Source: an uncultured Chloroflexia bacterium
Lineage (GTDB): Bacteria > Chloroflexota > Chloroflexia > QHBQ01 > JADMIH01
Direction of reading: 5' to 3'
Assembly: GCA_963797095.1 (NCBI GenBank)
Contig: CAWCNY010000005.1
Location: forward strand, 681,507-745,506
DNA length: 64,000 nt
Part shown: in pieces, positions 26,165 through 44,820 of the stretch
How the letters are laid out: the number at the start of each line of letters is the position of its first letter
Numbering within the stretch: the first letter of the stretch is position 1
Made by a program: the position numbers and the translations under genes
The notes under the pieces: generated by a model
What the model saw: the letters and a program-made list of their open reading frames with translations, nothing else
Database searches by the model: none
What the model was told of the DNA's origin: nothing

Positions 26165-26178
26165 AGGAGGAAAAGAAG

Positions 26179-27098: not shown

Positions 27099-28628
27099 AT
27101 GACGGCAGGCGCTAAAGCCGAAGTCGAAAACCCAGAGAGTTATGCTAGCCGGGTCCCTAGTGGCCTGAGGTCTTTACTTGTCCCCTCCAGGCTTATTTGG
27201 CTGGCGCTACTAGGCGGGGGGTTGCTACGGTTCTATAGATTCGATGCCCTGAGCCTGTGGGTAGACGAAGGTTGGGTCGTAGGGATTACGAGACAGCCGT
27301 GGGACGTGGTGCTTGGGCTACACGGGGCTTACGATAACCATCCACCGCTCTATTTCGCGCTCGCGAAGTTGATGGGGCTTATCGCGCCGGAGGTGACGGC
27401 GGGGCGGCTGGTGAGTGTGGTGGCGGGTACGCTTACTTTGCCGGTAATGTATGGGCTTGCCCGCAGGATGATCGGCGAGTGGGGCGGGCTGCTGGCTACG
27501 CTGGTAGTGGCGCTGTCGCCGCTGCACATCTGGTACTCGCAGGAGGCACGTCCATACGCCCTGACCGTACTGGCGGTAAGCGCTACATACCTTGCGGTGG
27601 CGGGCTTCCGCGAATCGCGCGGTTGGGGGTGGGCCTGGTTGTATGGGGCTGCGATAGCGGTCGGACTGTATTCCAGTTACAGCGCGATATATGCGCTTGT
27701 GCCGCAGGGGGCGCTGCTAATTTACCTGTCGGTAGTATATGGCAAGCAGGTGTGGCGGTTATGGCTGGCGGGGGTTGCAGGAGTGATAGCATTCTTGCCC
27801 TGGGTGCCGCAGTTGGTCGGCACTTTGGGCAACCTGGGAGATCGGAGCTATCTGGAAGTAAGCCCCGACAGGATTGGAAACACCCTGCTATCGATCACGG
27901 GGATTGGAGGTGAGGGGAGTTATTTCTGGGGGAGGTCTCCCACGGCATGGGACCGCTGGCCTGAGTTGCAGGTCATCATGGTTGTGGGACTGGTAGTGGT
28001 GTGTGTGGCGGGGCTTGCGGCGCTGTGGAAGCGCGGGTTATTTAGCTTGCTGTGCGGGATATGTCTCTTTGCGGGGACTGTAGTTGTGTGTGCCGGTTTG
28101 AGCATAGCCAGCCCAGGTTATGCAGAGCGCACACTGGTCAGCGCGACACTGGGGTGGGCGTTGATAGTGGGAGCCATCCCATTTGCGACGGTGGCACGTG
28201 GAGCGCGTGGATTGAAGTGGGCAGGCATTTCGGCGCTGGTAGTGGCGATGTTTCTCTCGCTGGCGTCGCTGTGGGCTATTTACAGAGGGGGCGATAAGCA
28301 GCACTGGCGCGAGTTTGCAAATGATGCCAGAGAGGTGGGGAAATCGGGAGAATTGGAGATACTGTATCCCGACATTACAGGCGTGCTGTTCGATGTATAT
28401 GAGCCGCACGCGTTCGACCAGGCTATGGTGATCTCCGACCTGGGAAGCCTGCCTGATAGCGTGCGGCCTGAGGCGGGGGCCGGATCGCTATGGCTGGCTT
28501 ATGTTGAAACGGCAGGGATTGAGAACATACAGGAGCAATTGGCAGAGCGCGGCTATACGCGGGTGGAACACAAGTATTACTGGAACCCCATGTGGTTGGA
28601 CCATTACGAGGGTGTTGGCGGCCAATAA
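27099..28628 (+). CDS. GT-C glycosyltransferase (PMT_2 / GT39-like)
   Basis: SLWVDEG, NHPPLY, YSQEARPYAL; many TM helices. Confidence 0.85.
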   Translation: MTAGAKAEVENPESYASRVPSGLRSLLVPSRLIWLALLGGGLLRFYRFDALSLWVDEGWVVGITRQPWDVVLGLHGAYDNHPPLYFALAKLMGLIAPEVTAGRLVSVVAGTLTLPVMYGLARRMIGEWGGLLATLVVALSPLHIWYSQEARPYALTVLAVSATYLAVAGFRESRGWGWAWLYGAAIAVGLYSSYSAIYALVPQGALLIYLSVVYGKQVWRLWLAGVAGVIAFLPWVPQLVGTLGNLGDRSYLEVSPDRIGNTLLSITGIGGEGSYFWGRSPTAWDRWPELQVIMVVGLVVVCVAGLAALWKRGLFSLLCGICLFAGTVVVCAGLSIASPGYAERTLVSATLGWALIVGAIPFATVARGARGLKWAGISALVVAMFLSLASLWAIYRGGDKQHWREFANDAREVGKSGELEILYPDITGVLFDVYEPHAFDQAMVISDLGSLPDSVRPEAGAGSLWLAYVETAGIENIQEQLAERGYTRVEHKYYWNPMWLDHYEGVGGQ

Positions 28629-28838
28629 GAGGGCAGCAGCGGGCACCAAAAGTGTCATCCACACACAGTACCTATTGGTATGGATCGATCACTCACCTGG
28701 TGGGTGCCGGTGTGGTATCATAATCAGCAGGCAGGGGCGATGTCTCGACCTGCATAAAACCTATTGGACTTCCGTTCGTATATAGGTGAGGGAAACCGCG
28801 AGAGTAGAGCGCATGATAGGAATGGGAACACAAGGGGC

Positions 28839-29744
28839 ATGATGAGGGCCGCCCGGGAAACAACGGTAAGCACGACCGCCACGCGCACGCGAGGGCGGTA
28901 TTGCAATATGTGCGGCACAAGGCTTGCGCGCGGAAGCGGGCTTGCGCTCTTCCCGAGCAGGCACAGCATCGAATGGCACGATTCGAGCGACGATGCCAAC
29001 GACGCGGGTCGAGCAACCACCTGGTCCTTATGTGAGGAATGTTACGCCGACAGATTGAAATGTGCTTCATGCGGCTTGCAGGTGGGCACGCAGGCTTTCA
29101 TGCTCGAGGGCGAGACAAGGATCTATTGCAAGCATTGTTTCGAGGAAAGGCCGAGGTGTGATACCTGCGGCGCGCCCGTAGGTGCACATTACTGGAACCG
29201 CACCGATGGCAGGAAGCTATGTGACAGGTGCCAATCGACGGTCGTCTCGGATAAGAAGCAGGCCGAAGGGCTGTATGACGGCGTGCGCACTGCGCTTATG
29301 CGCATGCTGGGGGTGACCCTGAAGAAGCCGTGCGGGTTGCAGCTTGTGAGCCGCAGCCAGTTGTTGGGGCTGATCGCGAAGTCTTCGCTTTACAGCCTGG
29401 ACGCTGAGAGCAAAGACAGATGCTTCGGTCTGTTCATCAGGGAAGGCAGGCACAGGGCGATTTTTGTGGAGTATGCGCTGCCCCAGATCGTGTTGCTAGA
29501 AGTGATGGCACATGAGTACGCCCACGCCTGGCAGAATGAGCAGTGCCAGCACGAGCTTGATCCTGAGATGCAGGAAGGGTTCGCCGAGTGGATTACCTAT
29601 AAGCTGCTCCAGGGGTGGAACTGCAAGAAACGCATGGAGCGAATGCTGAGGCGCGATGATATTTACGGTCGTGGCTTGAAAAAAATGCTACAATGGGAGG
29701 CCGAAGGGGGTATAGCCAAAGTATTCAGGCAAGTGCAGGGATAA
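28839..29744 (+). CDS. DA1-like protein: LIM-like zinc fingers plus HEXXH metallopeptidase
   Basis: Six CxxC pairs followed by AHEYAHAW...QEGFAEW...DIYGRG, resembling the DA1/DUF3633 peptidase; start placed after AAGGGG. Confidence 0.8.
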   Translation: MMRAARETTVSTTATRTRGRYCNMCGTRLARGSGLALFPSRHSIEWHDSSDDANDAGRATTWSLCEECYADRLKCASCGLQVGTQAFMLEGETRIYCKHCFEERPRCDTCGAPVGAHYWNRTDGRKLCDRCQSTVVSDKKQAEGLYDGVRTALMRMLGVTLKKPCGLQLVSRSQLLGLIAKSSLYSLDAESKDRCFGLFIREGRHRAIFVEYALPQIVLLEVMAHEYAHAWQNEQCQHELDPEMQEGFAEWITYKLLQGWNCKKRMERMLRRDDIYGRGLKKMLQWEAEGGIAKVFRQVQG

Positions 29745-29767
29745 GTTCCAGGTTCGGAGGACGGAGC

Positions 29768-31150
29768 ATGACTGATGAAATAGCGCTCAATTGCTTGCTG
29801 AACATGCGCACCGTGCCCGCAGCGAGTGAGCCGCGATTGCTTTATCTGCTGATCGATGTAAAGCCGGGCGCGGGGGCCGCGCCTTTACAAGCGCCTATGA
29901 ATATCGCCGTGGTGATCGACGTAAGCGAGTCGATGCGCCTCCCCGTGCTGTCACAAGAGCAGTTCGAGGAGTTATCGCGGTTGGGGCATGTGAACCAGAC
30001 CACATCTGACGGGGTGCCCGTGTGGACCTTCAAGAGCATTCCTGAGCATATTCGGAAGCGAGCGCCATCTAACCTTGAGGCTGTGCAGGCGTCTATCTCG
30101 CAGGCAGCCCAGCATTTTGAGGGCGGCGACCGGGTATCGCTGGTGGCCTTTGCCGACCAGCCGCAGGTGCTATTGAGCGGGCTGGCTGGAAGCGAGCTCG
30201 GGCAGGTGTTGGATGCTGTGCAATCGTTAGAGCAGGTGAAACTGGGCGATGGCACGGATATAGCTAAGGGGTTAGAAGCGGGGCTGACCGAGGTGCACAA
30301 AGGCATGGGCAACAAGGCCAATTTCGTAAACAGGGTGCTGGTGCTAACGGACGGCTTTACGCAGGACCCCGTCAAGGCCACCGCAAGAGCGAAGCAGGGG
30401 CGGAATGTGGGGATAGCGGTCAGCACGATAGGTATTGGTACGGAGTTCAACGAGAAGTTGCTGCTCGATATGGCAGATATCAGCCTGGGGAACGCCTATT
30501 TCGCACGCACACCAGCCGAGATACCGCCCGCCTTCGGGCAGGAGTTGGCGGCTGTACAGTCGGTAATCTTGAGAGATATAGAGGTGGAGATGAAGTTCAG
30601 CACGGGGGTGGAAGTAAGGAGGGCCTACAGGGTGCGCCCGGCCATCGCCACCGTGCGAGACGCCCGGCGCGAAGGGCGCGCATTGGGCGTGACGATGGGC
30701 GACCTGGACCCTGCGAACCCGCCCGCCTTGCTGGTGGAGTGCATCATCCCCACCCATGCAGGGGGCACGTTCAGGATCACTAGGGTAACCGCCACGTACA
30801 AGAACGAACATGGCGAGCGAGTGCCGGGGGCAACCTCGGACGTGGTGGTTAACTATTCCACCAGCAAGCGCAAGGACGAACCCGATCCGATGGTGATGAA
30901 CACGGTAGAGAGGGTAACGGCATACGCACTGCAAACGCGGGCGCTGGACGACCTGGCGACCGGGAACGTGGCAGCAGCCACCCAGAAGTTGCGTGCGGCA
31001 GTTACAAGGCTGCTGACGGTAGGAGAAACAGCACTAGCGGACGCTGTGCAAGCAGAGGCCGCGCGGTTGGCCCGAAGTGGGGAAGTGTCGCCGGAGAGCC
31101 AGAAGGAATTGCGCTATGCGACGCGCAGGCTTACGCAGAAGTTGGAGTAG
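29768..31150 (+). CDS. von Willebrand factor A (vWA) domain protein
   Basis: MIDAS DVSES, GTD, VLTDG, STIGIG; beta-sandwich region and helical C-terminus. Confidence 0.9.
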   Translation: MTDEIALNCLLNMRTVPAASEPRLLYLLIDVKPGAGAAPLQAPMNIAVVIDVSESMRLPVLSQEQFEELSRLGHVNQTTSDGVPVWTFKSIPEHIRKRAPSNLEAVQASISQAAQHFEGGDRVSLVAFADQPQVLLSGLAGSELGQVLDAVQSLEQVKLGDGTDIAKGLEAGLTEVHKGMGNKANFVNRVLVLTDGFTQDPVKATARAKQGRNVGIAVSTIGIGTEFNEKLLLDMADISLGNAYFARTPAEIPPAFGQELAAVQSVILRDIEVEMKFSTGVEVRRAYRVRPAIATVRDARREGRALGVTMGDLDPANPPALLVECIIPTHAGGTFRITRVTATYKNEHGERVPGATSDVVVNYSTSKRKDEPDPMVMNTVERVTAYALQTRALDDLATGNVAAATQKLRAAVTRLLTVGETALADAVQAEAARLARSGEVSPESQKELRYATRRLTQKLE

Positions 31151-31244
31151 CTGGTAGACGGGGTGTAAGTTCCTGGTTCCGACTACCGGCTTCCAGTGCC
31201 TCAATCGAAACAAAGGTTGTTAGCCAGACGTATAACATACTGAG

Positions 31245-33540
31245 ATGTCACGAATTTGCCCTATTTGTGGAAAGATGAACCCGGACACGGCGGGCAGTTG
31301 CGATGTGTGTGGAACACCGCTGCACGCGACTGAAGCCGTGGGCGCAGGCCAGGTGAATGGTGTGGCTGTGCAGACTGTGGGCAGCGCCCTGGGTGCGTTT
31401 GGGAATGGGATCGATTCTATTCTTGGCCCCGGCGACGCGCTACCGTCCGGGCAGCCGATGAGCGGGCCGATCTGCCCCAAGTGCAGGCGGGGCAATCGTG
31501 CTCATTCGGCGTTTTGCGCGTATTGTGGATACAGGTTGAAGTCGGACAACGGCACCGGCAATGGGCTTGCTCCTCATAATGGGTCGAACGGATTGCAGGC
31601 GCAGGCTTACGCCGCCTCAGCAGTATCGCCCGCGCCGCCTACATCACCTATGCCGCCGGTGGATGGGTCGGGCAACATACCGGCAGGGGTCATTCTCAAG
31701 AGGAGATTCCGCATTCCTGCGAAAGATCGCGCAGGGCGGTATGGGCGCGGTCTACGAAAGCCTGGACGTTACCGAGAATGACGGCAGGCGCTGGGCGGTG
31801 AAGGAGATGAGCCCGGCGGCCCTCCCGGCCAACGAGCGGACGGCTGCCGTGGCCGATTTCAGGCGGGAAGCGTCGATTTTGCACGGGTTGAAGCACCCCA
31901 ACCTGCCCGAAGTGCGCGAGACATTCGAGGAGATGGGCAGGTATTTCCTGGTGATGGAGTTCATCGCCGGGCGCACGCTGCTGAACCTTGTGGATATGAC
32001 GCCGGGCTTCATTCCGGAAGAGCGGGTCATGGTGTGGGCGCGACAATTGATCGAAGTGCTGCACTATCTCCATTCTCAGGACCCGCCAATCATCTACCGC
32101 GACGTGAAACCGGCCAATGTGATGCTGGTGGAGGGAACCGAGCGGATCAAGCTTATCGACTTCGGCATTGCGCGGTTCCACAGGCAGGGCAAGGTGCAGG
32201 ACACCGAGGCATTCGGGACGGCGGGCTACGCGCCTCCTGAGCAGTACGGCAAGGGACAGACCGACCAGCGCTCGGATATTTACGCGCTGGGGGCCACGCT
32301 ACACCATATCCTGACCAAGCAGGACCCCAGCCTCAACCCGTTCAATTGGGTACCCGCGCGACGGATGAACCCTAACGTATCACCCGCAATGGAAAACGCC
32401 CTGATGATCGCCACCAGCCTCGACCCTGCGCGTAGATTCAGGACAATCGAGGACTTTGGGCAGGCGCTGGGCGTCTACCTGCCGGGTGGGCTTGCGCATG
32501 CCAAGCCGATCATGGTAGGTCTCAACAACCCACGCCCGTATGTGGTATCCGCGCCGCCACCGCCGGTGATTCCAACAGAACCCATACCTGCTGCCAAGCC
32601 CGCAACAGCCACGTCAACGAGCCAGAAGCCGCGCACAAGCACATCGAAGAAGAAGACGACTTCGAGCGCGGCGGCGACGCCTGCACCTGCCAAGCCCGCG
32701 TCGAAGGTCACACCTGCCGGTGCTGCGCTTACGCCTGTACCGATTGTGGCATCAACTTCCTCGGCTGGGACAGTGATCGAAAACTCCGAGGTGCTGATAC
32801 CGACCAACACCGGCGTTGTGGACGAGAGCCAGGTAGCCACGCCACCGGCAACTTCTACTGCGGTTGCTCCGGTTGCCCAGCCTGCGCTGCCCGCCGAGAA
32901 GAAGCAGGAAAGTGGCAAGCCGGTGCTGGCTCAACAGATACTGGACCTGGGCGAGGCGCGTTGGAACAGCCGCGTTACCAAGAAAGTGCCTGTTACAACC
33001 ACCGGCGGGGCAGTGAGGGGGATGGTACTTGCAACTCAACCGTGGATAGCTTACAATCCACAGCACTTCCAGGGAAGCGCGGTCAGCATAGATGTGCACG
33101 TTAAGAGGCGTCAATTGAAGTTTGGACGCGTGGAGTTGCAAGTCCCGAATCTATTCGCTATTATATGGGCACGGTCACGCAGGGTCCTACCATTCATCCT
33201 GGTGTGGTTCTGGTTACTACTCCTGCTGGTAGGCACACTTGGTAGGATACTTCTGACCACAGCAGCGGTGGCAATAGGAGGGCTGCTGGTGCTTGAGGGT
33301 CTGATGTGGCTGTGGGCACAGCACGTTCGCCTGCTTGTGCCATCGGAGAGGGTCAATACGGGACGATTGATGGTGAAAAGCTCTGGCGGCGACAGCAGTA
33401 TCGAGGTGCGTGTGCTTGCCAGGCCATCATGGGTACAACGCACGGTAGGTTGGTCGATTGCTCTATTATTGTTCGTAACCGAGATAGTTCTGGCGACGTG
33501 GACTGTCCTGTCTCTGTTCGGGATCGAGATACCGCTTTGA
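31245..33540 (+). CDS. Double zinc-ribbon Ser/Thr protein kinase with C-terminal TM helices, +1 frameshift at 31716-31717
   Basis: Removing one C from CGCATTCCTGCGAAAG gives RRFRILRKIAQGGMGAVY and joins ORFs 31245 and 31561; AVKE, YRDVKPAN, DFG and APPE are intact. Confidence 0.85.
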
Positions 33541-33552
33541 GGAGGAATAAGG

Positions 33553-35127
33553 ATGAGATGTCCTAATTGTGGAAATGAAAACCCACCTGATTACCTGTTC
33601 TGCGACGAGTGCGGGGCACGGCTCATCGGCAACGATGTGGCTGCTATGTCAGGCACCCAGGACGCGGGCACAGACATGGACGCCGGTGGAGGTGGAGGTG
33701 GCGACAGCGCCATGTCCACGCAAGACCAGGCCGGAGCTGATATGGGAGGCGCAGCCAACTATGGAAGCTATGGCATGGGAGCCGACCAGTCTGTGCAGGG
33801 TGATGGTATGGGCGACATGGGCATGAGCGACGCAAACAACGGCGCAGCCCAGATGGCCGCCGACAGTGCGGACGATGAGACAGGGATGTCAGCTGTGCCC
33901 GTTACAGAAGATACAATGGCCGGTGAGGGCGCAGGAGCAGCAGAAGCAGCGCCTATGCCGGACGTGATCCGGCCGCTGACACCTATAGCTTCAAATGCGG
34001 ATCAGGACGCATCCATGGCCGATCAGGATGTGCAAGCAGGGGCATCCGCCAACGACGATGCACAGGAGAGCATGTCCGGGCCTGCCGATGATGCCAGGAT
34101 GGCGGTTGATGAGGGCATGGCCGAGGCGACAGGCATCTCAGGGAGCGCAGCCAGCATAAGCTCGATGCCCGACGCCGGGTATACAGAGGACGAAGCAGTA
34201 GCTGTGCCGATGGGCGATGTAGCCGACGAGAGCGGGCTGGCTGGCGCGGCGGGCAGCGAATGGGCTGCACATGCGCTTGATCTGTTGAACAGGGCACAGG
34301 ATGCCCTTTCAAACGCAGATTGGCGTATGTTCGGCGAGTTCATGCACAATCTGAAGTCGTCGTTGCAAGCGTCAGCGGCAGGAGCAGCAAGCTCAGCGGG
34401 TGCGATGCCGGTGGCACAGCCGGAAAGCGAAGCGCCCGCGATGCCTATGAGCGCTGATAGCGATATGTCGGGCACGCAGGCGCAAGATATGGGCGGTGCA
34501 AGCCCTAGCGCAGGTATGGCAAGCGACGCGGGCGCAGACAGCACAATGATGAGCGGCTCTCCAAGCAGCATGGCTATGGATGGAGGAGCACCATCAGCAC
34601 CGGCGACATACGAAGCCCCGCCGGTGGCCCCGATGAGCAGCACAGCCGATAGTATGGACAGCGGTATGCAGGCTACGAGTATGGATGCGGGGATGAGTAC
34701 AGCAAGCGCACCTTCGGAAGCGATGATGAACGCAGCGCCCACCAGCCCGCCTCCCACAGTCACCCCAATGGCATCAACTCCACCGCAGCCCGCCCCCGCG
34801 CCCTCCGGTGCCAGGCTGATCCTCATTTCGACAGGCGCTGAGATGGCGCTGCCCGACCAGGAGGAGATCACTGTTGGGCGCGAAGACCCCAGCAGCGGCA
34901 TCTTCCCCGATGTTGACCTGACTCCTTATGGAGGAGAAGACGGGGGAGTGTCTCGCAGGCACTCCAGGCTGCTCCATATAGGCGACGACTACTTCGTGGA
35001 GGACTTGCAGTCTACCAACTTCACCAAGCTGGACGGCCAGCGCCTGCCGGCGCATGTGCGCGAGCGGTTGGAAGATGGAGCGCGGCTCGATTTCGGACGC
35101 GTGGCGATGATCTTCCGCCGGGGGTAA
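33553..35127 (+). CDS. Zinc ribbon - acidic low-complexity linker - FHA domain protein
   Basis: CPNCGNEN...FCDECG; Ala/Asp/Met/Ser-rich middle; VGRED, VSRRH, DLQSTNFT, LEDGARL. Confidence 0.9.
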   Translation: MRCPNCGNENPPDYLFCDECGARLIGNDVAAMSGTQDAGTDMDAGGGGGGDSAMSTQDQAGADMGGAANYGSYGMGADQSVQGDGMGDMGMSDANNGAAQMAADSADDETGMSAVPVTEDTMAGEGAGAAEAAPMPDVIRPLTPIASNADQDASMADQDVQAGASANDDAQESMSGPADDARMAVDEGMAEATGISGSAASISSMPDAGYTEDEAVAVPMGDVADESGLAGAAGSEWAAHALDLLNRAQDALSNADWRMFGEFMHNLKSSLQASAAGAASSAGAMPVAQPESEAPAMPMSADSDMSGTQAQDMGGASPSAGMASDAGADSTMMSGSPSSMAMDGGAPSAPATYEAPPVAPMSSTADSMDSGMQATSMDAGMSTASAPSEAMMNAAPTSPPPTVTPMASTPPQPAPAPSGARLILISTGAEMALPDQEEITVGREDPSSGIFPDVDLTPYGGEDGGVSRRHSRLLHIGDDYFVEDLQSTNFTKLDGQRLPAHVRERLEDGARLDFGRVAMIFRRG

Positions 35128-35134
35128 AATCCGC

Positions 35135-35181
35135 AAGATCTAAAAAACCTGGACGCTGAGCGTCCAGGTTTTTTAGATCTT
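35135..35181. terminator. Bidirectional terminator between the two convergent signalling operons
   Basis: Perfect palindrome AAGATCTAAAAAACCTGGACGCT-G-AGCGTCCAGGTTTTTTAGATCTT. Confidence 0.9.
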
Positions 35182-35186
35182 ATCAA

Positions 35187-37775
35187 TTACATATTGTTAA
35201 GCGCAGTCGGGTGATCGGCCATGGGAAGGTATTCGGTCACATCGATCACGATAGTGGTGATATTGTCGTGGCCACCTGCCTGGTTGGCAAGCTCTATCAG
35301 GTCGTGGGCAGCCACGTTGGGATCGTCGGTGTTAGCGAGGGCATCTTCGATAGCCTCGTCTTCAACCATGCTGTTGAGACCGTCAGAGCAGAGAAGGAGG
35401 CGGTCGCCCGGTTGGAGGGTACGCACAAAAGTATCCACTTCCACAGGGGGTGGTCCACCGAGCGAGCGGTAGATGAAGTTGCGGTGCGGGTGTATCTTAG
35501 CCTCTTCGGGGTCAAGTTGGCCTAACTCCACCAGGCGATGCACCAGCGAGTGGTCCACGGAGACCTGGGAGAGGGTATATTCGCTCCTGTCGATCTTGGG
35601 CTTGCCAAGATCAAGAGGGATTTCAGGCGGGGCAGATGGCATGAGGGGAGCGGTACCGGCGAGGGGAGTGGTGCCTTTGACGATTGGCGCGGTCTCGCGG
35701 ACGGCGGCTTCGGCTGAGCTACGCGGCCTGGCATAGTGATAAATCCTGCTGTCGCCCACGTTTACGATATAGGCTTTGCCCCCCGCTACGAGAGCGGCCA
35801 CTATGGTGGTGCCCATGTCGTTCTGGCGGTTATCCCTGGCGCGATAGATGCGCTCGTTAGCCGATTGCACAGCGCGCACCATGCCCGCGAATATGGCCTC
35901 GTTGTTGGGCGCAGCACGCTCGGCAGGAGCCGCTATAAGAGAAGACACGACGCGGGACAGCACCTCGCCATAGAAGGCCTGTACGGCCAGGGCGCTGGCT
36001 ATCTCGCCGCCTTTGTGCCCGCCCAGACCGTCGGCAACCACATAGAGGCCAACGCGCAGCGGACGCTCGGCGCTGCCCTGTACAAACTCGGCCATGCCGA
36101 AAGAGTCCTGGTTGTTGTCGCGCAGGCGACCAACGTTGGTAAGACCGGCGGCGGTGAAAGCGACCGGGATGCCTGGTCTCTCAAGCTCGGCCACCGCCTC
36201 CATAGCCACGGCCAGGAGGTCGCGCCAGCGAGCCGCGCTGATGGGAGGTGCTATGCCCTGGGCAGGCTCGATGGCGGTGCGGAAGGCAGCGCCTACCTGT
36301 TCAGGAGCCGAGGACGGCATGGGCAGGATGCCCTCAGGGCTGAGGGAGGCAGCTTGGCCTGTGTAGGCTTCGTACATCGTGCCCGCAAGACGGGCCAGGT
36401 CGATCACCTGGTTCTGGGTCATCTCATCGACACTCTCCACCCGCGTGCGGGCGTTCTGAAGAGATGCAAGGGATGCGCGATCGCCTTGAACCAGGATATC
36501 GTCGGCTTCGGCACCGGCACCGACCACGCCACGGCTATGCAGATAGTCGAGGGCATCGGCCAATTGCATGGCCCAGTTGAGGACCTGGCCACCGTTGCGG
36601 GGGAGGCTCAACTGGCTGAGGCGCACACCCTGGCGAGGCTCGGCGACCGCGTAGTATCGGGTATGGCCGAACGGTTTGTAGCTGAAGAAATCTATCACCG
36701 GCACGAGGTTAGGGTGATACAGGTTGAGATCCATGATGCCGGGGTCCTGCATGAGGCTGGTTGGCATATAGCTCTCGGCCATCAGGTAGAAGTCAGCGGT
36801 GGCTTGGTCGGTTAAGGCCGTGCCGCAGTGAGGACAGTCTGCAAGGTCTACGCTGGAGATACGCCCGCAAGTTGGGCATTTCTGCTGCTTCTTCGTGGAA
36901 ACACGGTAGAGATTGCGGTCCTCACCGTGGTGCAGCAGGCTGCCGACCACATATTTGTTGTCAATAACGAAGTTGACGGCGAGAGGGGTAAGTTCCTCCT
37001 GCACTTCGGACTCAAGTTGAGGGCTGGTCTCAAGTCCCGGATCGGTATCGCGGTCCTCAAGCTCAGATATAGGAGATGCAGCCGTAGGATCCGCTGCGGC
37101 CTCCGCATGTACCGGACTTTCGCCTTCGGCGTCGCGTACGGGTGGGGCAACATCTTCTCCTTGTGCGGCCTCTTCCGATACTTCTACAGGTTCGACAGCG
37201 GTACCCTCTAGCTGCTGAACGGCCACAGCCTCATCCTCAGCGATTAGCGGGGCCTGTGCAGCATCTTCCACGGCTGCCATTTCGGGAGATGCCTCCTGGG
37301 TAGCAGGCTCACGTGGGGCGAGGGCTTCCATAGGAAGAGGCGAGGTCTGAGGTACGACCTTTCCACCACGCCTGGGGCGGACGGGGAGGTCGGGCGTGGG
37401 CGGCAAATCAGCTACGGGTTCCGCCTCCACACCATTTTCAGCAACCAATTCCGCCTCAGCACCGGTTTCCATACCTGATGCCGCCTCGGTACCGTTTCCC
37501 CCAATCGAAGCTGCGACCTCATCCTCGGCGGTTTCATCGGGCAAGTACATGCCCTCAGGCAATCTACCCAGGAGAGCAGCGGCAGCCTCGTTCTCATCGT
37601 CGTACTCATCTTGCTCAGGGGACATTGGAACATCCTGCTGGTCGGCAACCGGCTCAGATTCTGCCACATTCTGCTGGTCGGCAACCGGCTCAGGTTTGAT
37701 GCCGGGATCGGGATCGCTCTGGGTTTCGTCTGGCGGTGGGGCCTGTTGTTTAGATGTGCGGCGTATCCTATTCAT
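35187..37775 (-). CDS. Acidic N-terminus - zinc-ribbon pseudokinase - PP2C (PPM) phosphatase fusion
   Basis: NQDSF, VADGLGGH, MGTT, NVGDSR, LCSDGL and GGHDNIT intact; kinase-like HPNLVPVIDFF and QLADALDYLH, but no HRD or DFG. Confidence 0.88.
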   Translation of the reverse strand: MNRIRRTSKQQAPPPDETQSDPDPGIKPEPVADQQNVAESEPVADQQDVPMSPEQDEYDDENEAAAALLGRLPEGMYLPDETAEDEVAASIGGNGTEAASGMETGAEAELVAENGVEAEPVADLPPTPDLPVRPRRGGKVVPQTSPLPMEALAPREPATQEASPEMAAVEDAAQAPLIAEDEAVAVQQLEGTAVEPVEVSEEAAQGEDVAPPVRDAEGESPVHAEAAADPTAASPISELEDRDTDPGLETSPQLESEVQEELTPLAVNFVIDNKYVVGSLLHHGEDRNLYRVSTKKQQKCPTCGRISSVDLADCPHCGTALTDQATADFYLMAESYMPTSLMQDPGIMDLNLYHPNLVPVIDFFSYKPFGHTRYYAVAEPRQGVRLSQLSLPRNGGQVLNWAMQLADALDYLHSRGVVGAGAEADDILVQGDRASLASLQNARTRVESVDEMTQNQVIDLARLAGTMYEAYTGQAASLSPEGILPMPSSAPEQVGAAFRTAIEPAQGIAPPISAARWRDLLAVAMEAVAELERPGIPVAFTAAGLTNVGRLRDNNQDSFGMAEFVQGSAERPLRVGLYVVADGLGGHKGGEIASALAVQAFYGEVLSRVVSSLIAAPAERAAPNNEAIFAGMVRAVQSANERIYRARDNRQNDMGTTIVAALVAGGKAYIVNVGDSRIYHYARPRSSAEAAVRETAPIVKGTTPLAGTAPLMPSAPPEIPLDLGKPKIDRSEYTLSQVSVDHSLVHRLVELGQLDPEEAKIHPHRNFIYRSLGGPPPVEVDTFVRTLQPGDRLLLCSDGLNSMVEDEAIEDALANTDDPNVAAHDLIELANQAGGHDNITTIVIDVTEYLPMADHPTALNNM

Positions 37776-37810
37776 TTATACTCCGTATCATGATTGCCAT
37801 TGGATAAGTT

Positions 37811-37850
37811 CCGAGTACTGAGTACTGAGTATTGGGTATTGAGTAGCGAG
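37811..37850. repeat. 7-nt tandem repeat (GAGTACT family)
   Basis: gagtact gagtact gagtatt gggtatt gagtagc. Confidence 0.8.
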
Positions 37851-37909
37851 TTCCGGGTTCGTGGTTGTGACTTCCTGACCTGGTTCAGTGAATCCTTTCG
37901 CATGTAAAG

Positions 37910-38935
37910 CTATGGGATGCGATAAACGAAGCGGACGCTGCCGATCCGTAATTGATCGCCGTTGGAGATGGCAGCAGCGGTGTTGGCTTCCAGCCGGGTA
38001 TCGTTGATGAACGTGCCGGTGGGAGCGCCGAGATCTGTAACGGAGAATGAGCCATCGTCGTTGCGGAGAAGCTGGGCGTGGCGCGGGGCGACAGTGGAGC
38101 CACCCGCAAAGACCTTATCTATCATGATGTCGCAACCTGATGCCGAACCAAGCACGATACGCTTGCGAGAAAGGACGTATTCCAACTGCTCATCTGTACG
38201 GTCGAGGGTCTCCAGGTAGGGCATATCTTCGGTGACTACATCGGCAGGTGGAGACATGGTCGCGATGATGGAGGCACGCACGGGGCGCAAGTCCTGACCG
38301 CAATTATGACAGAAGTTCTCGTTCCAATCGTTTTCGGTGTTGCAGTTGGGACATGTAAGAGTGGCAGGAAGGGTGGAAGGGGCAGAAGGCGCGGGCGCGG
38401 CGGCTGCTGTGGCAGCAGGAGTTGTGGTGGTTGTGGGAGCAACTGTTGGTGTAGGACGGACGCGTGGAGCGGCCGGCGCTGCCACTGTGGGACCCGCGGC
38501 ACTAAGCATGGGACGTCGCGAGCGCAACATAAGCACAACGATCACGCCAAGCGCAACCACTACGAGCAGGATGATCGTTATCAGCCAGGGGAAGCCCCCG
38601 GAAGGGGACGCAGCGCTGGGTGTTACGTTCTGGCCCGGAGGGGCTGTATCTGAGTTGGGGTTAGCGGGCACACCGTCACCGGTAGGCACCGCTGCGGGCG
38701 GCACACCGCTGGGGGCAGGCAGGGGAACTGTCGGTACTTCCACGGGGGCGGTGGCCTGTGCGAGCGGACCTGAGAGCGATTTAAGAGAACCTGATGCCTG
38801 GGCAGCGCCCCAACCGAATGCCAAAATGAAGACGAGGAAGAGCGCCGAAATGGAAATAACGCCACTAAGCGTGCCCGCTGATGTAGCGCGACCGGCGCTT
38901 CTAGCTGAATGTGTGCGATTAGTACGATGGTTCAA
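37910..38935 (-). CDS. Membrane protein with cytoplasmic zinc ribbon and degenerate FHA domain
   Basis: AGGAGG RBS, TTG start; signal/TM helix, Pro-rich linker, TM helix, CPNC..N..FCHNCG, FHA fold (DLGAPTGTFIN, ISNGDQLRIG). Confidence 0.85.
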   Translation of the reverse strand: MNHRTNRTHSARSAGRATSAGTLSGVISISALFLVFILAFGWGAAQASGSLKSLSGPLAQATAPVEVPTVPLPAPSGVPPAAVPTGDGVPANPNSDTAPPGQNVTPSAASPSGGFPWLITIILLVVVALGVIVVLMLRSRRPMLSAAGPTVAAPAAPRVRPTPTVAPTTTTTPAATAAAAPAPSAPSTLPATLTCPNCNTENDWNENFCHNCGQDLRPVRASIIATMSPPADVVTEDMPYLETLDRTDEQLEYVLSRKRIVLGSASGCDIMIDKVFAGGSTVAPRHAQLLRNDDGSFSVTDLGAPTGTFINDTRLEANTAAAISNGDQLRIGSVRFVYRIP

Positions 38936-39043
38936 TTACGAAGTTTCCTCCTGGGTATATCCGGATTCCGGTTTAGTCACAAGAACCCATTATACCAGCC
39001 ACGTTCTGGAAACGGCAATCTTTGGATGGATTACAGACGATAT

Positions 39044-39106
39044 GTGACGAGTGGCGCGTGGCGAGTGACGAGTGGCGCGTGGCGAGTGACGAGTGACAAG
39101 TGGCGG
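39044..39106. repeat. 7-nt tandem repeat (GTGACGA/GTGGCGC family)
   Basis: About nine heptamers in the intergenic space. Confidence 0.85.
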
Positions 39107-39115
39107 GCGATGAAG

Positions 39116-40651
39116 TTAGCCTCCGAGGATAAAGTTGCATTGGACTTTGCCGATGCGAACCCGATCGCCATTGCGAAGGCGAGTGGGAACGCCACCGGGC
39201 AAGCGGCGATCATTGAGGAAGGTGCCATTGGCGCTTCCCAGGTCTTCGAGGAAATAGCCACCAGCATCGGAGAGGATGCGAGCGTGCTGCCTGGATACGT
39301 AGGCAGCGGGGTCGTTATAGGTGAGGTCGAGGTGAGGGAATATCTGGCGCGAGAGGCTGCGGCGGCCTACGTTGAAGGGGTTTTCGAGGATGCGCCGCTC
39401 CCAGAGCACACCGTTGGGGCCTAGCACCTGGATCTTGCCGGGCGGCCTGCCCGCTAGCGATGCTCCACAGCGCCCGCAGAAGTGGGCCTTGCCCTGGTTG
39501 GTAGCCCCGCACACCATACAGACCTTATCTGTGCTGGGTATGGGCTGGATGGGTTGGATGGGCTGGCCGGGGTTGGTAGGAGGCGCGGGTATGGTAGGGG
39601 AGGTGGGAGGCATACCAAGCCCAGGGTTGGAGACGACTTGGGGATAGGCCCCCTGGCCCGGGTTCGCCAACGGCTGGATGGGCGAGATAGGGGAGATGGG
39701 GTTGATTCCAGGCTGGGTGGCAGGGTTGGAAGGCAAAGGTTGGATTAGCGAAGCCCGCTCGTCGCCGACGGGAGCGGTGTAGGGTTTGCCCAGGCAGGAA
39801 CGCAGCTCATGCTCGAGGATAAGGGCGGTCTGCGGGCGTGCGTTCATATCACGCGACATGGAACGAATAACGAGGATCTCTGTCTTGGGGCTGATGCGGG
39901 GGTTATGGTCGCGCAGATTGGCGGGGGTGGTGGCGGGAGTGGGTGGCCTGCCGGTCAGCAGGTGGTAGAGAGTAGCCGCCAGCGAATAAACATCTGAGCG
40001 GGCATCGGTCTGGCCTTTGCCGAACTGCTCGAATGGAGCGTAGGCGGCGGTGCCCATAGACATAGTGTCTTTGCGCTTGCCCTCTTTGTAAGTGCGCGCT
40101 ATGCCGAAGTCGATCAGCTTGATCTGGGCGTTCGGCATGATCATAATATTGGCGGGCTTGACATCGCGGAAGATGATGGGCGGGTCCTGGGTATGCAGGA
40201 ACTGGAGGACTTCGCACATCTGGATGCCATACTGAAGAGCCTCTTCCTCGTTCATGGGCTGGCCGTGCAGGCGGTCGATCTTCTTTTCAAGCGATTCGCC
40301 AGGGATCAATTCCATTACGAGGTAGGGCCTGCCGCCTTCGGTAAAGAAATCCGTGACGCGGGGAAGGTTATGGTGGCGCAGATCGCTAAGTATCTGGGCC
40401 TCGCGTCTGAAGGCTTCGAGTAGCTGACGGCGTTCTTCGCGCTCGCGGGCGTGATCTTCTTCGGTCTGGGCGGCGGGAGGGCGAGCAGCGTGGGACTCTA
40501 TATCGGTACGCATCTCTTTGACGGCCACATGCATACCGCCGTTGCGGGTATCCTCGGATTTATACACAGCGCCCATGCCGCCGCCCCCGATCACGCGCAG
40601 GATGCGGTAGCGGCCACGCAACATATAGCCGATGGGAAGAAATTCGTACAT
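39116..40651 (-). CDS. Ser/Thr protein kinase - Pro-rich linker - zinc ribbon - FHA
   Basis: GGGGMGAVY, AVKE, FRDVKPAN, DFG, APFE; CMVC..N..FCGRCG; VGRR, VSRQH, DLGSANGT. Confidence 0.93.
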   Translation of the reverse strand: MYEFLPIGYMLRGRYRILRVIGGGGMGAVYKSEDTRNGGMHVAVKEMRTDIESHAARPPAAQTEEDHAREREERRQLLEAFRREAQILSDLRHHNLPRVTDFFTEGGRPYLVMELIPGESLEKKIDRLHGQPMNEEEALQYGIQMCEVLQFLHTQDPPIIFRDVKPANIMIMPNAQIKLIDFGIARTYKEGKRKDTMSMGTAAYAPFEQFGKGQTDARSDVYSLAATLYHLLTGRPPTPATTPANLRDHNPRISPKTEILVIRSMSRDMNARPQTALILEHELRSCLGKPYTAPVGDERASLIQPLPSNPATQPGINPISPISPIQPLANPGQGAYPQVVSNPGLGMPPTSPTIPAPPTNPGQPIQPIQPIPSTDKVCMVCGATNQGKAHFCGRCGASLAGRPPGKIQVLGPNGVLWERRILENPFNVGRRSLSRQIFPHLDLTYNDPAAYVSRQHARILSDAGGYFLEDLGSANGTFLNDRRLPGGVPTRLRNGDRVRIGKVQCNFILGG

Positions 40652-40896
40652 TGCTCATCTAGATTATAGGTTGGCACGTGGCTTATGTCAACGAGTGGGA
40701 AGTAGGAAAGGGGTACTAATCGCTTAAAGATTTTCGGCTGGTATGGTCTTGCACACAGGGCCGCAACTCATAGATGGGTGATTGCGTAAGTGATATGGAT
40801 GGGGGTTGCTTCCGTCCCAATTAAGCGGATTGCGGACGGAAGCACACTCCTTACGCTAATGATGGCACATACGCGCCGTAAGGCTTATAATCAGGG

Positions 40897-40952
40897 CGTG
40901 ATACGCGACTGGCGTGCTACGTGATACGTGCTGCGCTATACGTGCTGCGCTC
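40897..40952. repeat. 7-nt tandem repeat (GTGATAC/GTGCTAC family)
   Basis: About eight degenerate heptamers upstream of the UPF0182 gene. Confidence 0.7.
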
Positions 40953-40986
40953 GGTACTCTGGGTCCTAAAAGGGCGGTGTATTGTT

Positions 40987-43953
40987 ATGTCTACTAATAA
41001 TTCGGGGAACAACAGGCAAGGGCGATCCGGTAATAACAATTCTTCTACGGTGCGGATGATGCCCAATCGGCCATCGAGAAGGTGGCGAAGTTGGATCATA
41101 TGGATCGTCGTGGCGATCTTCGTACTGGCTATTTTGATCCCTTCGCTGCTGGCCGAGGCGATCACCGACTGGATGTGGTTCGGCAGCCAGGGGCTGGCCG
41201 ATGTGTACACGACTCGGCTGTGGCTCGCGTTGGGCGTATTCGTAGGAGGGCTGGCGCTGGGGCTGATATTCCTCCTTGTCAACTGGCTTGGTGCTCTCAG
41301 AGCCGTACAGCCGGGCACGCTATTCGAGGGGCAGCAGGAAGTGATACCGAGGGGCGCGGCGCGCTGGATCGCGATTAGCCTGGCGGTGGCGATTGCCTTC
41401 TTCATGGGGCTGGCGGCAGCCGATGAGTGGCCCAATATCCTCCTGTTCGTGAATGGCGGGCCGTTCGGGCAGACCGACCCCATCTTCGGCAACGATATAG
41501 GGTTTTATGTGTTTGAGTTGCCTTTCTTCCGCCTGCTGAGGGGGTGGGCGCTTGTACTGCTGATCCTGACAGCCATAGGCACGGTGATCATCTACGCGGT
41601 GGGGCATTCCCCGCAGTTCGTACGCCAGTTGAGCGAGCAGTTACCTAGGCAAGGCGGGCCAAGGCGTAGCACGATCAATTTGCAGGGCCTATCTTTCCGC
41701 CTTCCCCAATCGGCGAGTGTGCACCTGACGGTGCTGGGGGCGATCTTCCTGGCCCTGATCGGGATCGGCTACTGGTTCGACCGCTTCGATCTGCTCTATT
41801 CGGAGCACGATCTGGTCTACGGAGCAGATTATACTGATGTGAACGCGACGCTTCCGGCGCTCAATATTATGATGGTTATAGCAGGGGCGATGGTGATATT
41901 GCTGATCGCCAACCTGTGGGTAAGGACGTGGCGGCTGCTGGCGGGGGCGCTGGGGTTGTGGCTCATCGCGCTGATACTGGTCAAGGGCCTCTATCCGACC
42001 ATAATCCAGCAATTCGTTGTACAACCCAACCAGTCGCAACTTGAAACGCCCTATATAGAGAACAGCATCAAAGCCACGCGGCAGGCGTTCGGGTTGGACC
42101 AGTTCCATGAGCAGGAAGTGCCAGCAGTTTCTTCGATAACCAGGGAGCAGGTAAACGAAAACCCCAACATCACCAACAATATACGCCTGTGGGACTACCG
42201 GCCTTTGCTCGATACGTACAGCAAGTTGCAGGAGATAAGGACCTATTACTCACTGGATGACGTGGATATTGACCGTTACACCCTGGATGGGAAACAGAGG
42301 CAGGTAATGCTCTCGGCGCGTGAGCTTAACTCCAATGAATTGAGCGAAAACATCAGGACATGGGAGAATGTGCACTTCCGGTACACTCACGGCTACGGGG
42401 TGGTCATGTCAACGGTGAACGATATAGAGGGCGAGGGATTGCCTAACCTGCTGATCAAGGATATACCGCCCGTGGCAAGCGCGCCGGAGCTTCAAATCAC
42501 GCGCCCTGAGATCTATTACGGGGAGGAGACGGACGAGTACGTGTTCGTCAACTCAACAGATATCCAGGAGTTCGACTACCCGCTAGGCGATACCAACAAG
42601 TTCACCAGCTACAAGGGCAGCGGAGGGGTGGAAGTCAGCGATTTCTTCACCAAGCTGCTGTTCGCGGTGCGGTTCGGGGATGGCAATATCATGTTGTCGC
42701 CCTATATTACGCCTGGTACAAGAGTGCTCTATCACCGGAATATCTCCGAAATGCTGGAGCAGCTAGCGCCCTTCCTGAGGTATGAGGATGACCCTTACAT
42801 GGTGGTGGTGGATGGCAAACTGTACTGGATAGAGGACGCGCACACTTACACAGACCGCTATCCATATTCGACGCCTTTCAAGTACGGCGCGTTCGACACC
42901 GGTCTCAATTACATCCGCAACTCGGTGAAGGTGGTAATCGACGCCTATGAGGGCACCGCGACCTACTATGTGATCGATCCGACCGATCCGTTGATCAACG
43001 CTTACAGACGCATCTTCCCCGACCTGTTCAAGGATGCGAGCGAGATGCCCGCCGGAATCAGGGCGCACCTGCGATACCCGGAAGGGCTTATGGATATTCA
43101 GGCCCGGATGTACACAGTGTTCCACATGACCGACCCGCAGGTGTTCTACACGAAGGAAGACGTGTGGGCACTGCCATCGGACAGCGCGATAAACGCCAGT
43201 AACAGCAACGTGGTGATCCCCGAAGCATATTATGTCAATATACAACTGCCCGGCGAGCAAAAGGTGGACTTTATGCTGATCCAGTCGTTCACGCCCAATA
43301 CGAAAGACAATATGATCGCGTGGATGGCGGCGAAGAGCGACCCGCAGGACTACGGGCAGGTGGAGGTGATCAGGTATCCGAAACAGCAGCTCGTGTACGG
43401 GCCAAGCCAGATAGAAGCGCGCATCGACCAGAACACTACCATTTCGCAGCAATTATCGCTGTGGAACGGGAGCGGCTCGGAGGTGATCAGGGGGAACCTG
43501 CTGACGATTCCGATCTCGAACACGCTGTTGTATATAGAGCCGCTCTTCTTGAAGGCCACCACGCCAGGAAGCTTCCCGGAGCTAAAGCGAATCATTGTAG
43601 CGACCGGCAACAACGTGGGGATCGGGGATGACCTGGCGGAAGCGTTGGATGTGGCGTTCAATCTGAAAGCGCCTGAAGTAATCCCTGGCACGGGCGAGGC
43701 CACGCCAACACCGGCACCGGGGGTGACGCCGCAGCCTACAAGCCCGCAACCCACGCCTGGAGGGACCGTAACTGTGACCGGGCGCAGTGTGGAGGAGATA
43801 ACCCAGTCAGCCCTCGACCACTACAACCGCGCCCAGGAAGCGCTAAAGCGAGGCGATTGGACCACCTACGGGGAAGAGATCGACGCCATGAAAGCCGACC
43901 TCGATGAGTTAGCCCAGATCACAGGCGTGCCCGTCCCAACGGCAATTCCATAG
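40987..43953 (+). CDS. UPF0182-family membrane protein
   Basis: TDWMWF, DPIFGNDIGFYVFELP, NIRLWDYRP, YTHGYG, RPEIYYGE, NYIRNSVK, HLRYPE, VIRGNLL, AQEALKRGDW..YGE. Confidence 0.95.
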   Translation: MSTNNSGNNRQGRSGNNNSSTVRMMPNRPSRRWRSWIIWIVVAIFVLAILIPSLLAEAITDWMWFGSQGLADVYTTRLWLALGVFVGGLALGLIFLLVNWLGALRAVQPGTLFEGQQEVIPRGAARWIAISLAVAIAFFMGLAAADEWPNILLFVNGGPFGQTDPIFGNDIGFYVFELPFFRLLRGWALVLLILTAIGTVIIYAVGHSPQFVRQLSEQLPRQGGPRRSTINLQGLSFRLPQSASVHLTVLGAIFLALIGIGYWFDRFDLLYSEHDLVYGADYTDVNATLPALNIMMVIAGAMVILLIANLWVRTWRLLAGALGLWLIALILVKGLYPTIIQQFVVQPNQSQLETPYIENSIKATRQAFGLDQFHEQEVPAVSSITREQVNENPNITNNIRLWDYRPLLDTYSKLQEIRTYYSLDDVDIDRYTLDGKQRQVMLSARELNSNELSENIRTWENVHFRYTHGYGVVMSTVNDIEGEGLPNLLIKDIPPVASAPELQITRPEIYYGEETDEYVFVNSTDIQEFDYPLGDTNKFTSYKGSGGVEVSDFFTKLLFAVRFGDGNIMLSPYITPGTRVLYHRNISEMLEQLAPFLRYEDDPYMVVVDGKLYWIEDAHTYTDRYPYSTPFKYGAFDTGLNYIRNSVKVVIDAYEGTATYYVIDPTDPLINAYRRIFPDLFKDASEMPAGIRAHLRYPEGLMDIQARMYTVFHMTDPQVFYTKEDVWALPSDSAINASNSNVVIPEAYYVNIQLPGEQKVDFMLIQSFTPNTKDNMIAWMAAKSDPQDYGQVEVIRYPKQQLVYGPSQIEARIDQNTTISQQLSLWNGSGSEVIRGNLLTIPISNTLLYIEPLFLKATTPGSFPELKRIIVATGNNVGIGDDLAEALDVAFNLKAPEVIPGTGEATPTPAPGVTPQPTSPQPTPGGTVTVTGRSVEEITQSALDHYNRAQEALKRGDWTTYGEEIDAMKADLDELAQITGVPVPTAIP

Positions 43954-44204
43954 GTTGACAGGGCAAATCTATCCGACCCTAAGATCGAGCGCTACACAAG
44001 TCGTAGTCCCTACGGGACTTGGCACCACGGCTTTCCATCATTTTCCTAATATTCTGAGTGCCTTATGAATGTCCTCCCAACCACGCACCCTGAGGTTCAC
44101 GCCAAAAAACTGTACCAAAGTACATATATTCGATGGGAAATGTTATCGCACTAGCTTTGCAGGGATGGCTCCGCCCCCTGCCCACGATGGATCGTTAGCC
44201 ATAC

Positions 44205-44786: not shown

Positions 44787-44820
44787 GCGTTGGCAACTGG
44801 AAAAATCAAATTAGGTTTAG

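Follow-up and report, generated by a model that had tools for sequence, protein, structure and literature searches.

A DA1-like peptidase gene followed by a vWA gene in a kinase, FHA and PP2C gene neighbourhood of a soil Chloroflexia bacterium

How much of what surrounds a bacterial DA1-like peptidase gene belongs with it, and what would a zinc peptidase do among kinases, phosphothreonine readers and a phosphatase? These questions are raised by a locus at positions 28839-43953 of the window, the term used here for the whole stretch of 64,000 nucleotides that was analyzed (positions 681,507 to 745,506 of contig CAWCNY010000005.1, assembly GCA_963797095.1), from the genome of an uncultured soil Chloroflexia bacterium. 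Gene and domain calls were made from an open reading frame (ORF) list and a Pfam scan over the window. They placed all eight genes (g1 to g8) with the domains named for them in the initial annotation: a DA1-like peptidase, a vWA protein, two kinases, FHA proteins, a pseudokinase-PP2C protein and a UPF0182 membrane protein. That annotation took the eight genes to be one system. The locus instead comprises three separable units, namely unit A (g1-g4), unit B (g7-g6-g5) and unit C (UPF0182, g8), with unit B occurring without unit A in one family of the order (f2) and the two units lying apart in four genomes. The robust signal of the locus is the DA1-like peptidase gene followed by the vWA gene, a pairing which is apparently undescribed.

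The DA1-like peptidase and its vWA partner

A scan of the genome collection with g1 returned 226 relatives, and the best 80 loci, 79 of which come from Chloroflexota-labelled records, were used to examine gene neighborhoods. Among the resulting 81 rows, 6 had no room to judge; in the other 75 a vWA gene was found directly downstream of the DA1-like gene in 42 and not in 33. On a quick IQ-TREE phylogeny of g1 the vWA-linked rows cluster (13 changes, against 27.4 on average after shuffling; none of 500 shuffles gave so few). They fall in the clade of the window and in Anaerolineae/Thermoflexales, and the clades of Chloroflexales and Ktedonobacteria are mostly unlinked. A kinase, FHA or PP2C gene was identified in 33 of 41 vWA-linked loci versus 5 of 33 unlinked loci, and all three kinds were present together in 16 of 41 versus 2 of 33. 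Of the 34 loci with room to see it, 22 have a kinase gene no more than 2.5 kb beyond the vWA gene, and the gene order DA1-like, vWA, ribbon-kinase is kept from Chloroflexia to Anaerolineae. The grouping of phosphorylation writer, reader and eraser genes with a zinc peptidase, proposed initially from this one sequence together with a check of DA1-like neighborhoods for the kinase set, thus recurs in relatives.

In one Anaerolineae locus (L085) Pfam identified on a single strand a vWA gene, a triple-ribbon FHA gene, an FHA-FHA-ABC transporter gene, two kinase genes, the DA1-like gene, a vWA gene, a ribbon-kinase gene and further kinase genes. The transporter gene of this locus (L085:3417-6380), between the ribbon-FHA gene and the two kinase genes, encodes a protein of 987 residues with two FHA domains, an ABC transporter ATPase and an ABC-2 permease.

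The peptidase gene g1 (28839-29744, plus strand, with the ORF open from a TTG at 28764) is predicted from its sequence and model to encode a gluzincin metallopeptidase with an intact HExxH...E motif and LIM-like zinc fingers at its N-terminus. It scores 31.1 bits against the Pfam DA1-like family (PF12315, gathering cut-off 25), matching profile positions 74-132. The residues H225, E226, and H229 of the HExxH motif and the motif EGFAEW are invariant in 15 of 15 homologous sequences, and eight invariant Cys residues in the 15 homologs have the LIM-like spacing CxxC-x18-CxxC-x6-CxxC-x17-CxxC. A profile of g1 gave weak matches to LIM-domain chains (E 1.5e-3 to 7e-3) and also matched the HExxH region of M1 aminopeptidases. 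On g1 of the window itself Pfam gave no match to the LIM family PF00412 at E 0.01 or better; in precomputed annotation PF00412 occurs on a minority of the homologs, some of which carry it together with PF12315. Most close homologs are annotated with PF12315, and the NCBI name for homologs is 'protein DA1'.

Residues 137-301 of the AlphaFold2 (AF2) model of g1 (predicted local distance difference test, pLDDT, 78.8) align with the catalytic domains of M1 aminopeptidases (Z 11.3, root-mean-square deviation 2.8, 141 aligned), thermolysin and MATCAP also being aligned in the VIA wide search. A Foldseek comparison of the model with the PDB returned nothing at E 1e-3 or better. A complex prediction for g1 and g2 scored 0.00 in two runs with controls not run, and weighs neither for nor against binding. 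The DA1-like family itself is large, with 3258 cluster representatives at E 1e-3 or better, mostly annotated as hypothetical. Many members (P0124, P0130, P0152, P0210, and similar ones) are 350-470 residues long, with profile matches in three or four separate stretches. Of the longer forms looked up (n=10), two are named, one each from Candidatus Sumerlaeota and candidate division CSSED10-310, and the family therefore reaches beyond Chloroflexota.

The vWA protein is encoded by g2 (29768-31150, plus strand, ORF open from an ATG at 29693; Pfam VWA 66.8 bits), 24 nt after g1. Its AF2 model (pLDDT 92.2) has strands at residues 5-33, the vWA domain at 44-264, strands at 268-364, and helices at 374-453, giving a beta-sandwich that the vWA domain interrupts, then a four-helix C-terminal bundle. 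The protein's MIDAS (metal ion-dependent adhesion site) is intact, D51-x-S53-x-S55, T163, and D195 being invariant in 34 of 34 orthologs. The best Foldseek match was 4fx5, a vWA protein of Catenulispora (E 4.6e-27), and the list also holds 8s05_A from the ArnA-ArnB complex (E 2.2e-23, TM-score 0.65/0.76), 5a8j, a paralog of ArnB (E 2.7e-21), and then Sec23/24. By sequence, the best PDB matches found with phmmer were again 8s05_A (1.8e-5) and 5a8j (2.3e-4), and the predicted order of strands and helices agrees with the description of ArnB as far as given in the available text (PMC12852372).

The last gene of unit A, g4 (33553-35127, plus strand), encodes a Zn_Ribbon_1 domain at residues 3-24 and, at residues 439-515, a canonical FHA domain with GR, SRRH, and N motifs; the linker of ~400 residues that joins them is acidic and rich in Met, Ala and Ser. 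It has just two sequence matches in the PDB (phmmer), both of which are ArnA chains (5a8i_A, 1.1e-4; 8s05_C, 1.7e-4). As judged from sequence and model, g2 has the architecture of ArnB and g4 that of ArnA (zinc ribbon, linker, FHA). The Arn module of Sulfolobus acidocaldarius regulates motility, and in the parts of its descriptions available the C-terminus of ArnB, once phosphorylated by the kinase ArnC, is bound by the FHA domain, and the beta-sandwich and helical domain of ArnB are where the ArnA ribbon docks (PMC6509490, PMC12852372; PDB 8s05, 5a8j, 5a8i). Near the C-terminus of g2 (31117-31150) all 34 of 34 orthologs have the same residues Y450, T452, and R453, with the window reading Y-A-T-R-R-L-T. 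The Leu at position +3 of the Thr fits the preference of FHA domains, which makes the T452 region a candidate FHA-binding phosphosite.

Three units at one locus

Between g2 and g4 lies the kinase gene of unit A, g3 (31245-33540, plus strand; spacers of 94 and 12 nt), with a double zinc ribbon, a Ser/Thr kinase domain (Pkinase 134 bits), a Pro/Thr-rich linker, a beta-rich segment and two to three C-terminal transmembrane (TM) helices. The domains of the zinc-ribbon kinase with a TM tail described initially are therefore present, but not in one open frame. The frame of 31245-31781 carries the two ribbons and the one next to it, from about 31714, carries the kinase, and when compared to relatives (4 of 4 aligned) g3 has one extra base at CGCAT(T)CCTGCG, at ~31715 (31700-31720), upstream of the glycine loop. 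In relatives at loci L017, L024, and L025 the ribbon and the kinase are contiguous in a single frame. A programmed frameshift was rejected because the relatives encode g3 in a single frame, and the extra base may reflect either a mistake in the assembly or recent inactivation. Three soil-metagenome runs gave short contigs only, none of them spanning ~31715.

Unit A converges with unit B on a bidirectional intrinsic terminator at 35135-35181. The perfect palindrome that had been noted between the two gene sets is real, with a stem of 22 bp flanked by A6/T6, and its fold (-35.1 kcal/mol, z -11.5) was equaled by 0 of 200 shuffles. An Rfam scan of 26000-46000 gave no family at the gathering score.

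Unit B is opened by g7 (39116-40651, minus strand), which has Pkinase (139.8 bits), Zn_Ribbon_1 and FHA (63.6 bits) domains. Upstream of it on the minus strand is a promoter-like site at 40663-40691 (TTGACA, 17 nt, TATAAT), called sigma-70-like by a 12/12 consensus match only. In an alignment the kinase of g7 retains the glycine loop, the VAIK Lys, FRD, DFG and an APE-like motif, and that of g3 the same set with YRD for FRD; both genes, as judged from these sequences, carry the motifs of active Hanks-type Ser/Thr kinases. The FHA domain of g7 is canonical (GR, SRQH, N). The second gene, g6 (37910-38935, minus strand), encodes two TM (hydrophobic) segments, a Zn_Ribbon_1 domain and an FHA domain (50.5 bits). 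In this FHA domain (37910-38179) the canonical Arg of GR and Ser of SR-x-H are replaced, the sequence reading GS and AP-R-H, and this reader may for that reason no longer bind phosphothreonine. The close relative L025 has GT, and the more distant L111, L118, and L127 keep GR and the Ser.

The last gene of unit B, g5 (35187-37775, minus strand), encodes a PP2C_2 phosphatase domain (residues 554-809, 67.7 bits) preceded by roughly 540 N-terminal residues, which start with an acidic low-complexity stretch. Residues 260-540 align with g7 and g3 over the alphaC-alphaE region, and residues 351-442 give weak matches to kinase models. Residues 260-540 have no glycine loop, VAIK lysine, HRD/N catalytic loop, DFG or activation segment, and the label of pseudokinase is therefore right; the pseudokinase-PP2C fusion named in the initial annotation is borne out by this comparison. 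A ribbon, CPTCG...CPHCG (residues ~299-318), which matches no Pfam ribbon model, is inserted where an active kinase has its glycine loop and beta3. Pseudokinase-PP2C matches of the length of g5 were also found in Anaerolineae clusters (L063, L065, L066, L078, L079, and L087). No cluster protein reached the cut-off of an NCBIfam equivalog, the nearest being Stp1_PP2C_phos on g5 (215 versus 230 bits).

At least one zinc ribbon of the form CxxC...CxxC occurs in six of the seven proteins other than UPF0182, the exception being g2. The UPF0182 gene g8 (40921-43953, plus strand) is a full-length match to its family (PF03699, 958.8 bits, profile positions 2-770 of 770). It is divergent from g7, the last kinase, as had been stated, across a spacer of 270 bp with promoter-like sites on both strands.

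Conservation of these units within the order was read by tblastn and by coordinates. A homolog of g1 is found in 31 of 41 relatives, including 22 of 24 in its own family, 8 of 9 in family f3, and 0 of 5 in f2. The convergent arrangement of units A and B occurs in 11 genomes (G000, G003, G004, G005, G007, G008, G014, G015, the unpublished G021, G023, and G035), one of which, G035, belongs to another family. Family f2 has unit B without the DA1-like gene, as a full operon in G029 and in part in G027 and G033. The DA1-vWA pair occurs without a kinase within 10 kb in G028 and G030, and in G028 what follows the vWA gene is unrelated (NHL/thioredoxin-like, one of unknown kind, and PMT_2). Unit B is an autonomous kinase/FHA/PP2C operon, often but not always beside unit A.

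The genes flanking the cluster are rplA, a PMT_2 glycosyltransferase gene, a cyclase gene and a pair of genes for an extracytoplasmic function (ECF) sigma factor and its anti-sigma factor. Downstream of UPF0182, at 46088-48530, are the ECF sigma gene and the zf-HC2 anti-sigma gene, the latter also with Big_5 and LGFP domains. In 9 of 18 loci of relatives (L013, L015, L016, L020, L021, L022, L026, L027, and L028) a paralog of this anti-sigma gene (~40% identical) sits upstream of, and divergent from, the DA1-like gene, and the window and its closest relatives have rplA and the PMT_2 gene there instead. The adenylate/guanylate cyclase-domain gene, also downstream of UPF0182, is at 44821-45711. 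Cyclase homologs (~30-33% identity) occur ~3.8 kb upstream of vWA-unlinked DA1-like genes in the Ktedonobacteria-type loci L070, L103, L107, and L108, which may be chance as the domain is a common one.

Weighing the readings of the locus

A modest balance of probability favors reading the locus as a phosphorylation-dependent protein-assembly switch of ArnA/ArnB type to which a zinc peptidase has been added, the mechanism being drawn by analogy. The membrane-anchored kinase of g3, the soluble kinase of g7, or both, would phosphorylate threonines in g2 or in the linkers, which are long and disordered, with the C-terminal Y-x-T-R-R-L of g2 as a candidate phosphosite. The FHA domains of g4 and g7 would read these phosphothreonine marks and tighten the complex, and the ribbons of six proteins may dock on g2 as a hub independently of phosphorylation, as the ArnA ribbon does on ArnB. 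The PP2C domain of g5 would erase the marks and reset the system. The g1 peptidase would be its output or reset, cutting one bound partner, most plausibly in a disordered linker (that of g4 or of g5) or in the membrane tether of the g3 kinase.

A bolder form of this reading is, on balance, unlikely. It would make the LIM-like/DA1-like peptidase the proteolytic output of a bacterial ArnAB-type switch in which zinc ribbons are the common docking tag of kinases, FHA readers, pseudokinase-PP2C and peptidase on a Sec23/24-like vWA hub, and phosphorylation licenses the cutting of a bound partner, for example freeing a membrane-tethered kinase, which would be a parallel to the cutting of the receptor kinase TMK1 by plant DA1. 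In that case plant DA1 would have these bacterial LIM-peptidases as its prokaryotic kin, and perhaps as its source.

A number of points weigh against the assembly switch. Binding, phosphorylation and cleavage by the cluster proteins are so far only inferred. The kinase gene g3 is frameshifted in this assembly and, if the frameshift is real, unit A has no writer of its own here; the FHA domain of g6 lacks its canonical Arg and Ser in this genome; and the DA1-like match of g1 spans only 59 of 213 profile positions. Units A and B lie apart, on other contigs or far off, in G010, G026, G028, and G030. The 33 of 75 DA1-like loci with no vWA neighbor are mostly from Chloroflexales and Ktedonobacteria, and the two of them that were examined (L092 and L109) have unrelated neighbors. 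No kinase, FHA or PP2C match was found in 8 of 41 vWA-linked loci, among them L047 and L049 with 10 kb on each side. Since the pair occurs in these loci without such genes, and G028 has unrelated genes after its vWA gene, the peptidase and the vWA protein may work without phosphorylation. All of these counts are of related genomes, which are not independent samples, and of loci differing in length, and they come from tblastn with the window proteins, by which distant vWA, kinase and FHA genes can be missed.

It is accordingly worth asking whether the adjacency is largely historical, with units A, B and UPF0182 independent of one another and the DA1-vWA pair a self-contained device, e.g., a peptidase that a MIDAS adhesin-like partner holds or presents, kinases not being needed. 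The separations just described, the eight loci without kinase, FHA or PP2C genes and the presence of unit B in f2 all suit this explanation, as do the 12-50 first-look g5 candidates per Chloroflexota genome; some co-occurrence with kinases is to be expected because Chloroflexota genomes are rich in Ser/Thr kinases. It accounts poorly, however, for the contrast between vWA-linked and unlinked loci (33 of 41 versus 5 of 33), for a DA1-like, vWA, ribbon-kinase order that is the same in distant classes, for the match of g2 and g4 to a pair known to be phospho-regulated, and for the convergence of units A and B on a shared terminator in 11 genomes, including G035; we regard it as rather improbable. 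Another explanation is a system for conflict or against invaders, of the TerY-P or vWA-kinase-PP2C kind, where infection would trigger phosphorylation and the peptidase would be an effector destroying a host or invader protein. The vWA, kinase and PP2C genes do make up the composition of TerY-P, which is treated as a defense system in the literature available. A theme of ribbon-kinase (beta-rich/TM), PP2C and standalone vWA is reported, in the text available, from the conflict systems that multicellular bacteria, Chloroflexi among them, carry (Kaur et al. 2020, PMC7159879), and a threat-sensing pathway with vWA, kinase, phosphatase and FHA output, Esr, from Actinomycetota (PMC13622651). On the other side, PADLOC, which presumably includes TerY-P models, gave no family for g1, g2, g4, g6, and g8, kinase models only for g3 and g7 (PD-T4-6, mad6, and MkoA), and marginal matches for g5 (E 2.9e-4 to 5.8e-3) to three kinase models (PD-T4-6) and one PDC-M21C. 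The flanks have no MoxR, GTPase, nuclease or toxin genes, and no defense-island variability was seen. The flanking genes and the even GC content, 0.57-0.61 across the cluster and the same in the flanks, speak for a regulatory system that is resident in the genome and not for a mobile defense island. A single-copy cluster, present in 22 of 24 genomes of the family and lying at a syntenic, compositionally ordinary site next to rplA, likewise points to housekeeping regulation (e.g., of envelope or membrane state), and a defense role seems to us unlikely.

The last alternative to the assembly switch makes UPF0182 a working part, to or from which unit B would signal via the membrane protein g6, tying phospho-signaling to regulated membrane proteolysis. 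The divergent arrangement with g7 across promoter-like sites speaks for this, and so does a preprint whose available text correlates UPF0182 phenotypically in Actinobacteria with FtsH and YccA, in membrane-protein quality control (2026 preprint, 10.1101/2025.11.14.688347); kinases, FHA and PP2C do not come up in that text. The family, of unknown function in the initial annotation, is to that extent no longer wholly so. Within the order, 11 of the 19 genomes that could be judged, five read by tblastn and six by coordinates only, have UPF0182 no more than 6 kb from g5 and divergent from g7 (G000, G004, G007, G009, G011, G012, G018, G021, G022, G024, and G035 of another family), or 9 of 17 when the unpublished G021 and G022 are excluded. 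In the other eight it is elsewhere (G003, G005, G010, G026, G028, G029, G030, and G037). Among 20 UPF0182 loci from other Chloroflexota families, with ~8 kb on each side, kinase, FHA, PP2C, vWA and DA1-like genes were matched in 0 of 20, the sole exception-like match being one short stretch of 38 residues to the ribbon region of g6 at ~7 kb from UPF0182 in L147. UPF0182 is also a separate transcription unit, and it is present in 37 of 41 relatives of the order and 62 of 151 Chloroflexota genomes, and in f2, where the DA1-like gene was not found. With 11 of 19 in the order and 0 of 20 in other families, the adjacency is best read as an inherited synteny of the lineage and not a family-wide link. 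A working role for UPF0182 in the cluster is thus very unlikely, and its proposed tie to the machine, checked by neighborhood profiling, did not hold up outside this order. It is judged to be a neighbor retained by descent and not a shown component, which removes a tempting but weak lead. In G003 (C9:108398-110747; L120) the UPF0182 gene is in two overlapping pieces with an in-frame TAG, and is either broken or mis-assembled.

Comparison with known systems

Modules of vWA, kinase, FHA and PP2C proteins recur in bacteria and archaea, with outputs that are mostly unknown, and a conserved peptidase partner offers a concrete output step. The TerY-P triad and its E. coli counterpart YegL-YegI-YegK consist of a vWA protein, a Ser/Thr kinase and a PP2C phosphatase. 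The locus shares this composition, but differs in that FHA readers and zinc ribbons occur here, as do a pseudokinase and a peptidase, and g2 and g5 match no PADLOC model named for a vWA or phosphatase component. The operon DRA0331-DRA0334 of Deinococcus radiodurans combines vWA, Ser/Thr kinase, FHA and PP2C with FHA domains as phospho-docking switches. In its available text it is without a peptidase, zinc ribbons are not mentioned, and PP2C is fused to KI-FHA and not to a pseudokinase as here (bioRxiv 10.64898/2026.01.23.701218). In the GAP1-N2 GTPase theme the ribbon kinase with a beta-rich domain or TM, the PP2C and the standalone vWA protein fit g3, g5, and g2; this theme is reported, in the text available, as restricted to Actinobacteria and attached to GTPase systems, whereas the flanks here have no GTPase gene (Kaur et al. 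2020, PMC7159879). Esr has in common with the locus a vWA protein, a kinase/phosphatase pair and an FHA output protein, and zinc-finger FHA variants are noted for it. It differs in its MoxR ATPase, beta-propeller sensors and link to Esx secretion, none of which is seen here, and the word peptidase has 0 occurrences in its available text (PMC13622651).

The initial annotation had rightly stated that vWA/kinase/PP2C triads exist. Its view that the combination at this locus was not known from any description stands in part, as vWA/kinase/FHA/PP2C operons, the ArnA/ArnB switch included, are already described and only the peptidase partnership appears new. Our search of the literature turned up no account of a DA1-like peptidase as part of such a set, and the main text of Kaur et al. 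2020 (PMC7159879) uses 'DA1' 0 times, although the supplementary tables of that paper and of the Esr preprint could list such sets. The DA1-vWA linkage would be the first functional context for the large bacterial DA1-like family.

Plant DA1 has a LIM domain N-terminal to its peptidase together with ubiquitin-interacting motifs (UIMs), is activated by ubiquitylation, and cleaves growth regulators as well as the kinase TMK1. The peptidase of g1 resembles it in a HExxH...E gluzincin domain scoring above the Pfam cut-off and in Cys-rich, putatively LIM-like fingers directly N-terminal of that domain, a likeness judged by Pfam and profile. It differs in matching just the 59 Pfam positions given above, in using Cys alone as zinc ligands, with 6 residues separating one finger from the other, and in having a vWA protein as its partner. 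The Pfam scan of g1 gave no UIM family, no search aimed at UIM being made, and no ubiquitin system was seen.

When compared to ArnA, ArnB and ArnC, the cluster here is bacterial and not archaeal, the similarity is weak (E 1e-4 to 1e-5, ~16% identity in structural alignments), the linker of g4 is ~400 residues long, and a kinase with ribbons and a TM tail sits between g2 and g4. A DA1-like peptidase heads the operon, and no peptidase was seen in the available text of the Arn descriptions (PMC6509490, PMC12852372). However, g2 has in common with ArnB the topology of a sandwich split by vWA and followed by a helix bundle, with its MIDAS, g4 has in common with ArnA the layout of ribbon, linker and FHA, and a Hanks kinase is encoded alongside them. 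On this likeness the ArnA/ArnB switch, so far studied in Sulfolobus, would be extended to bacteria.

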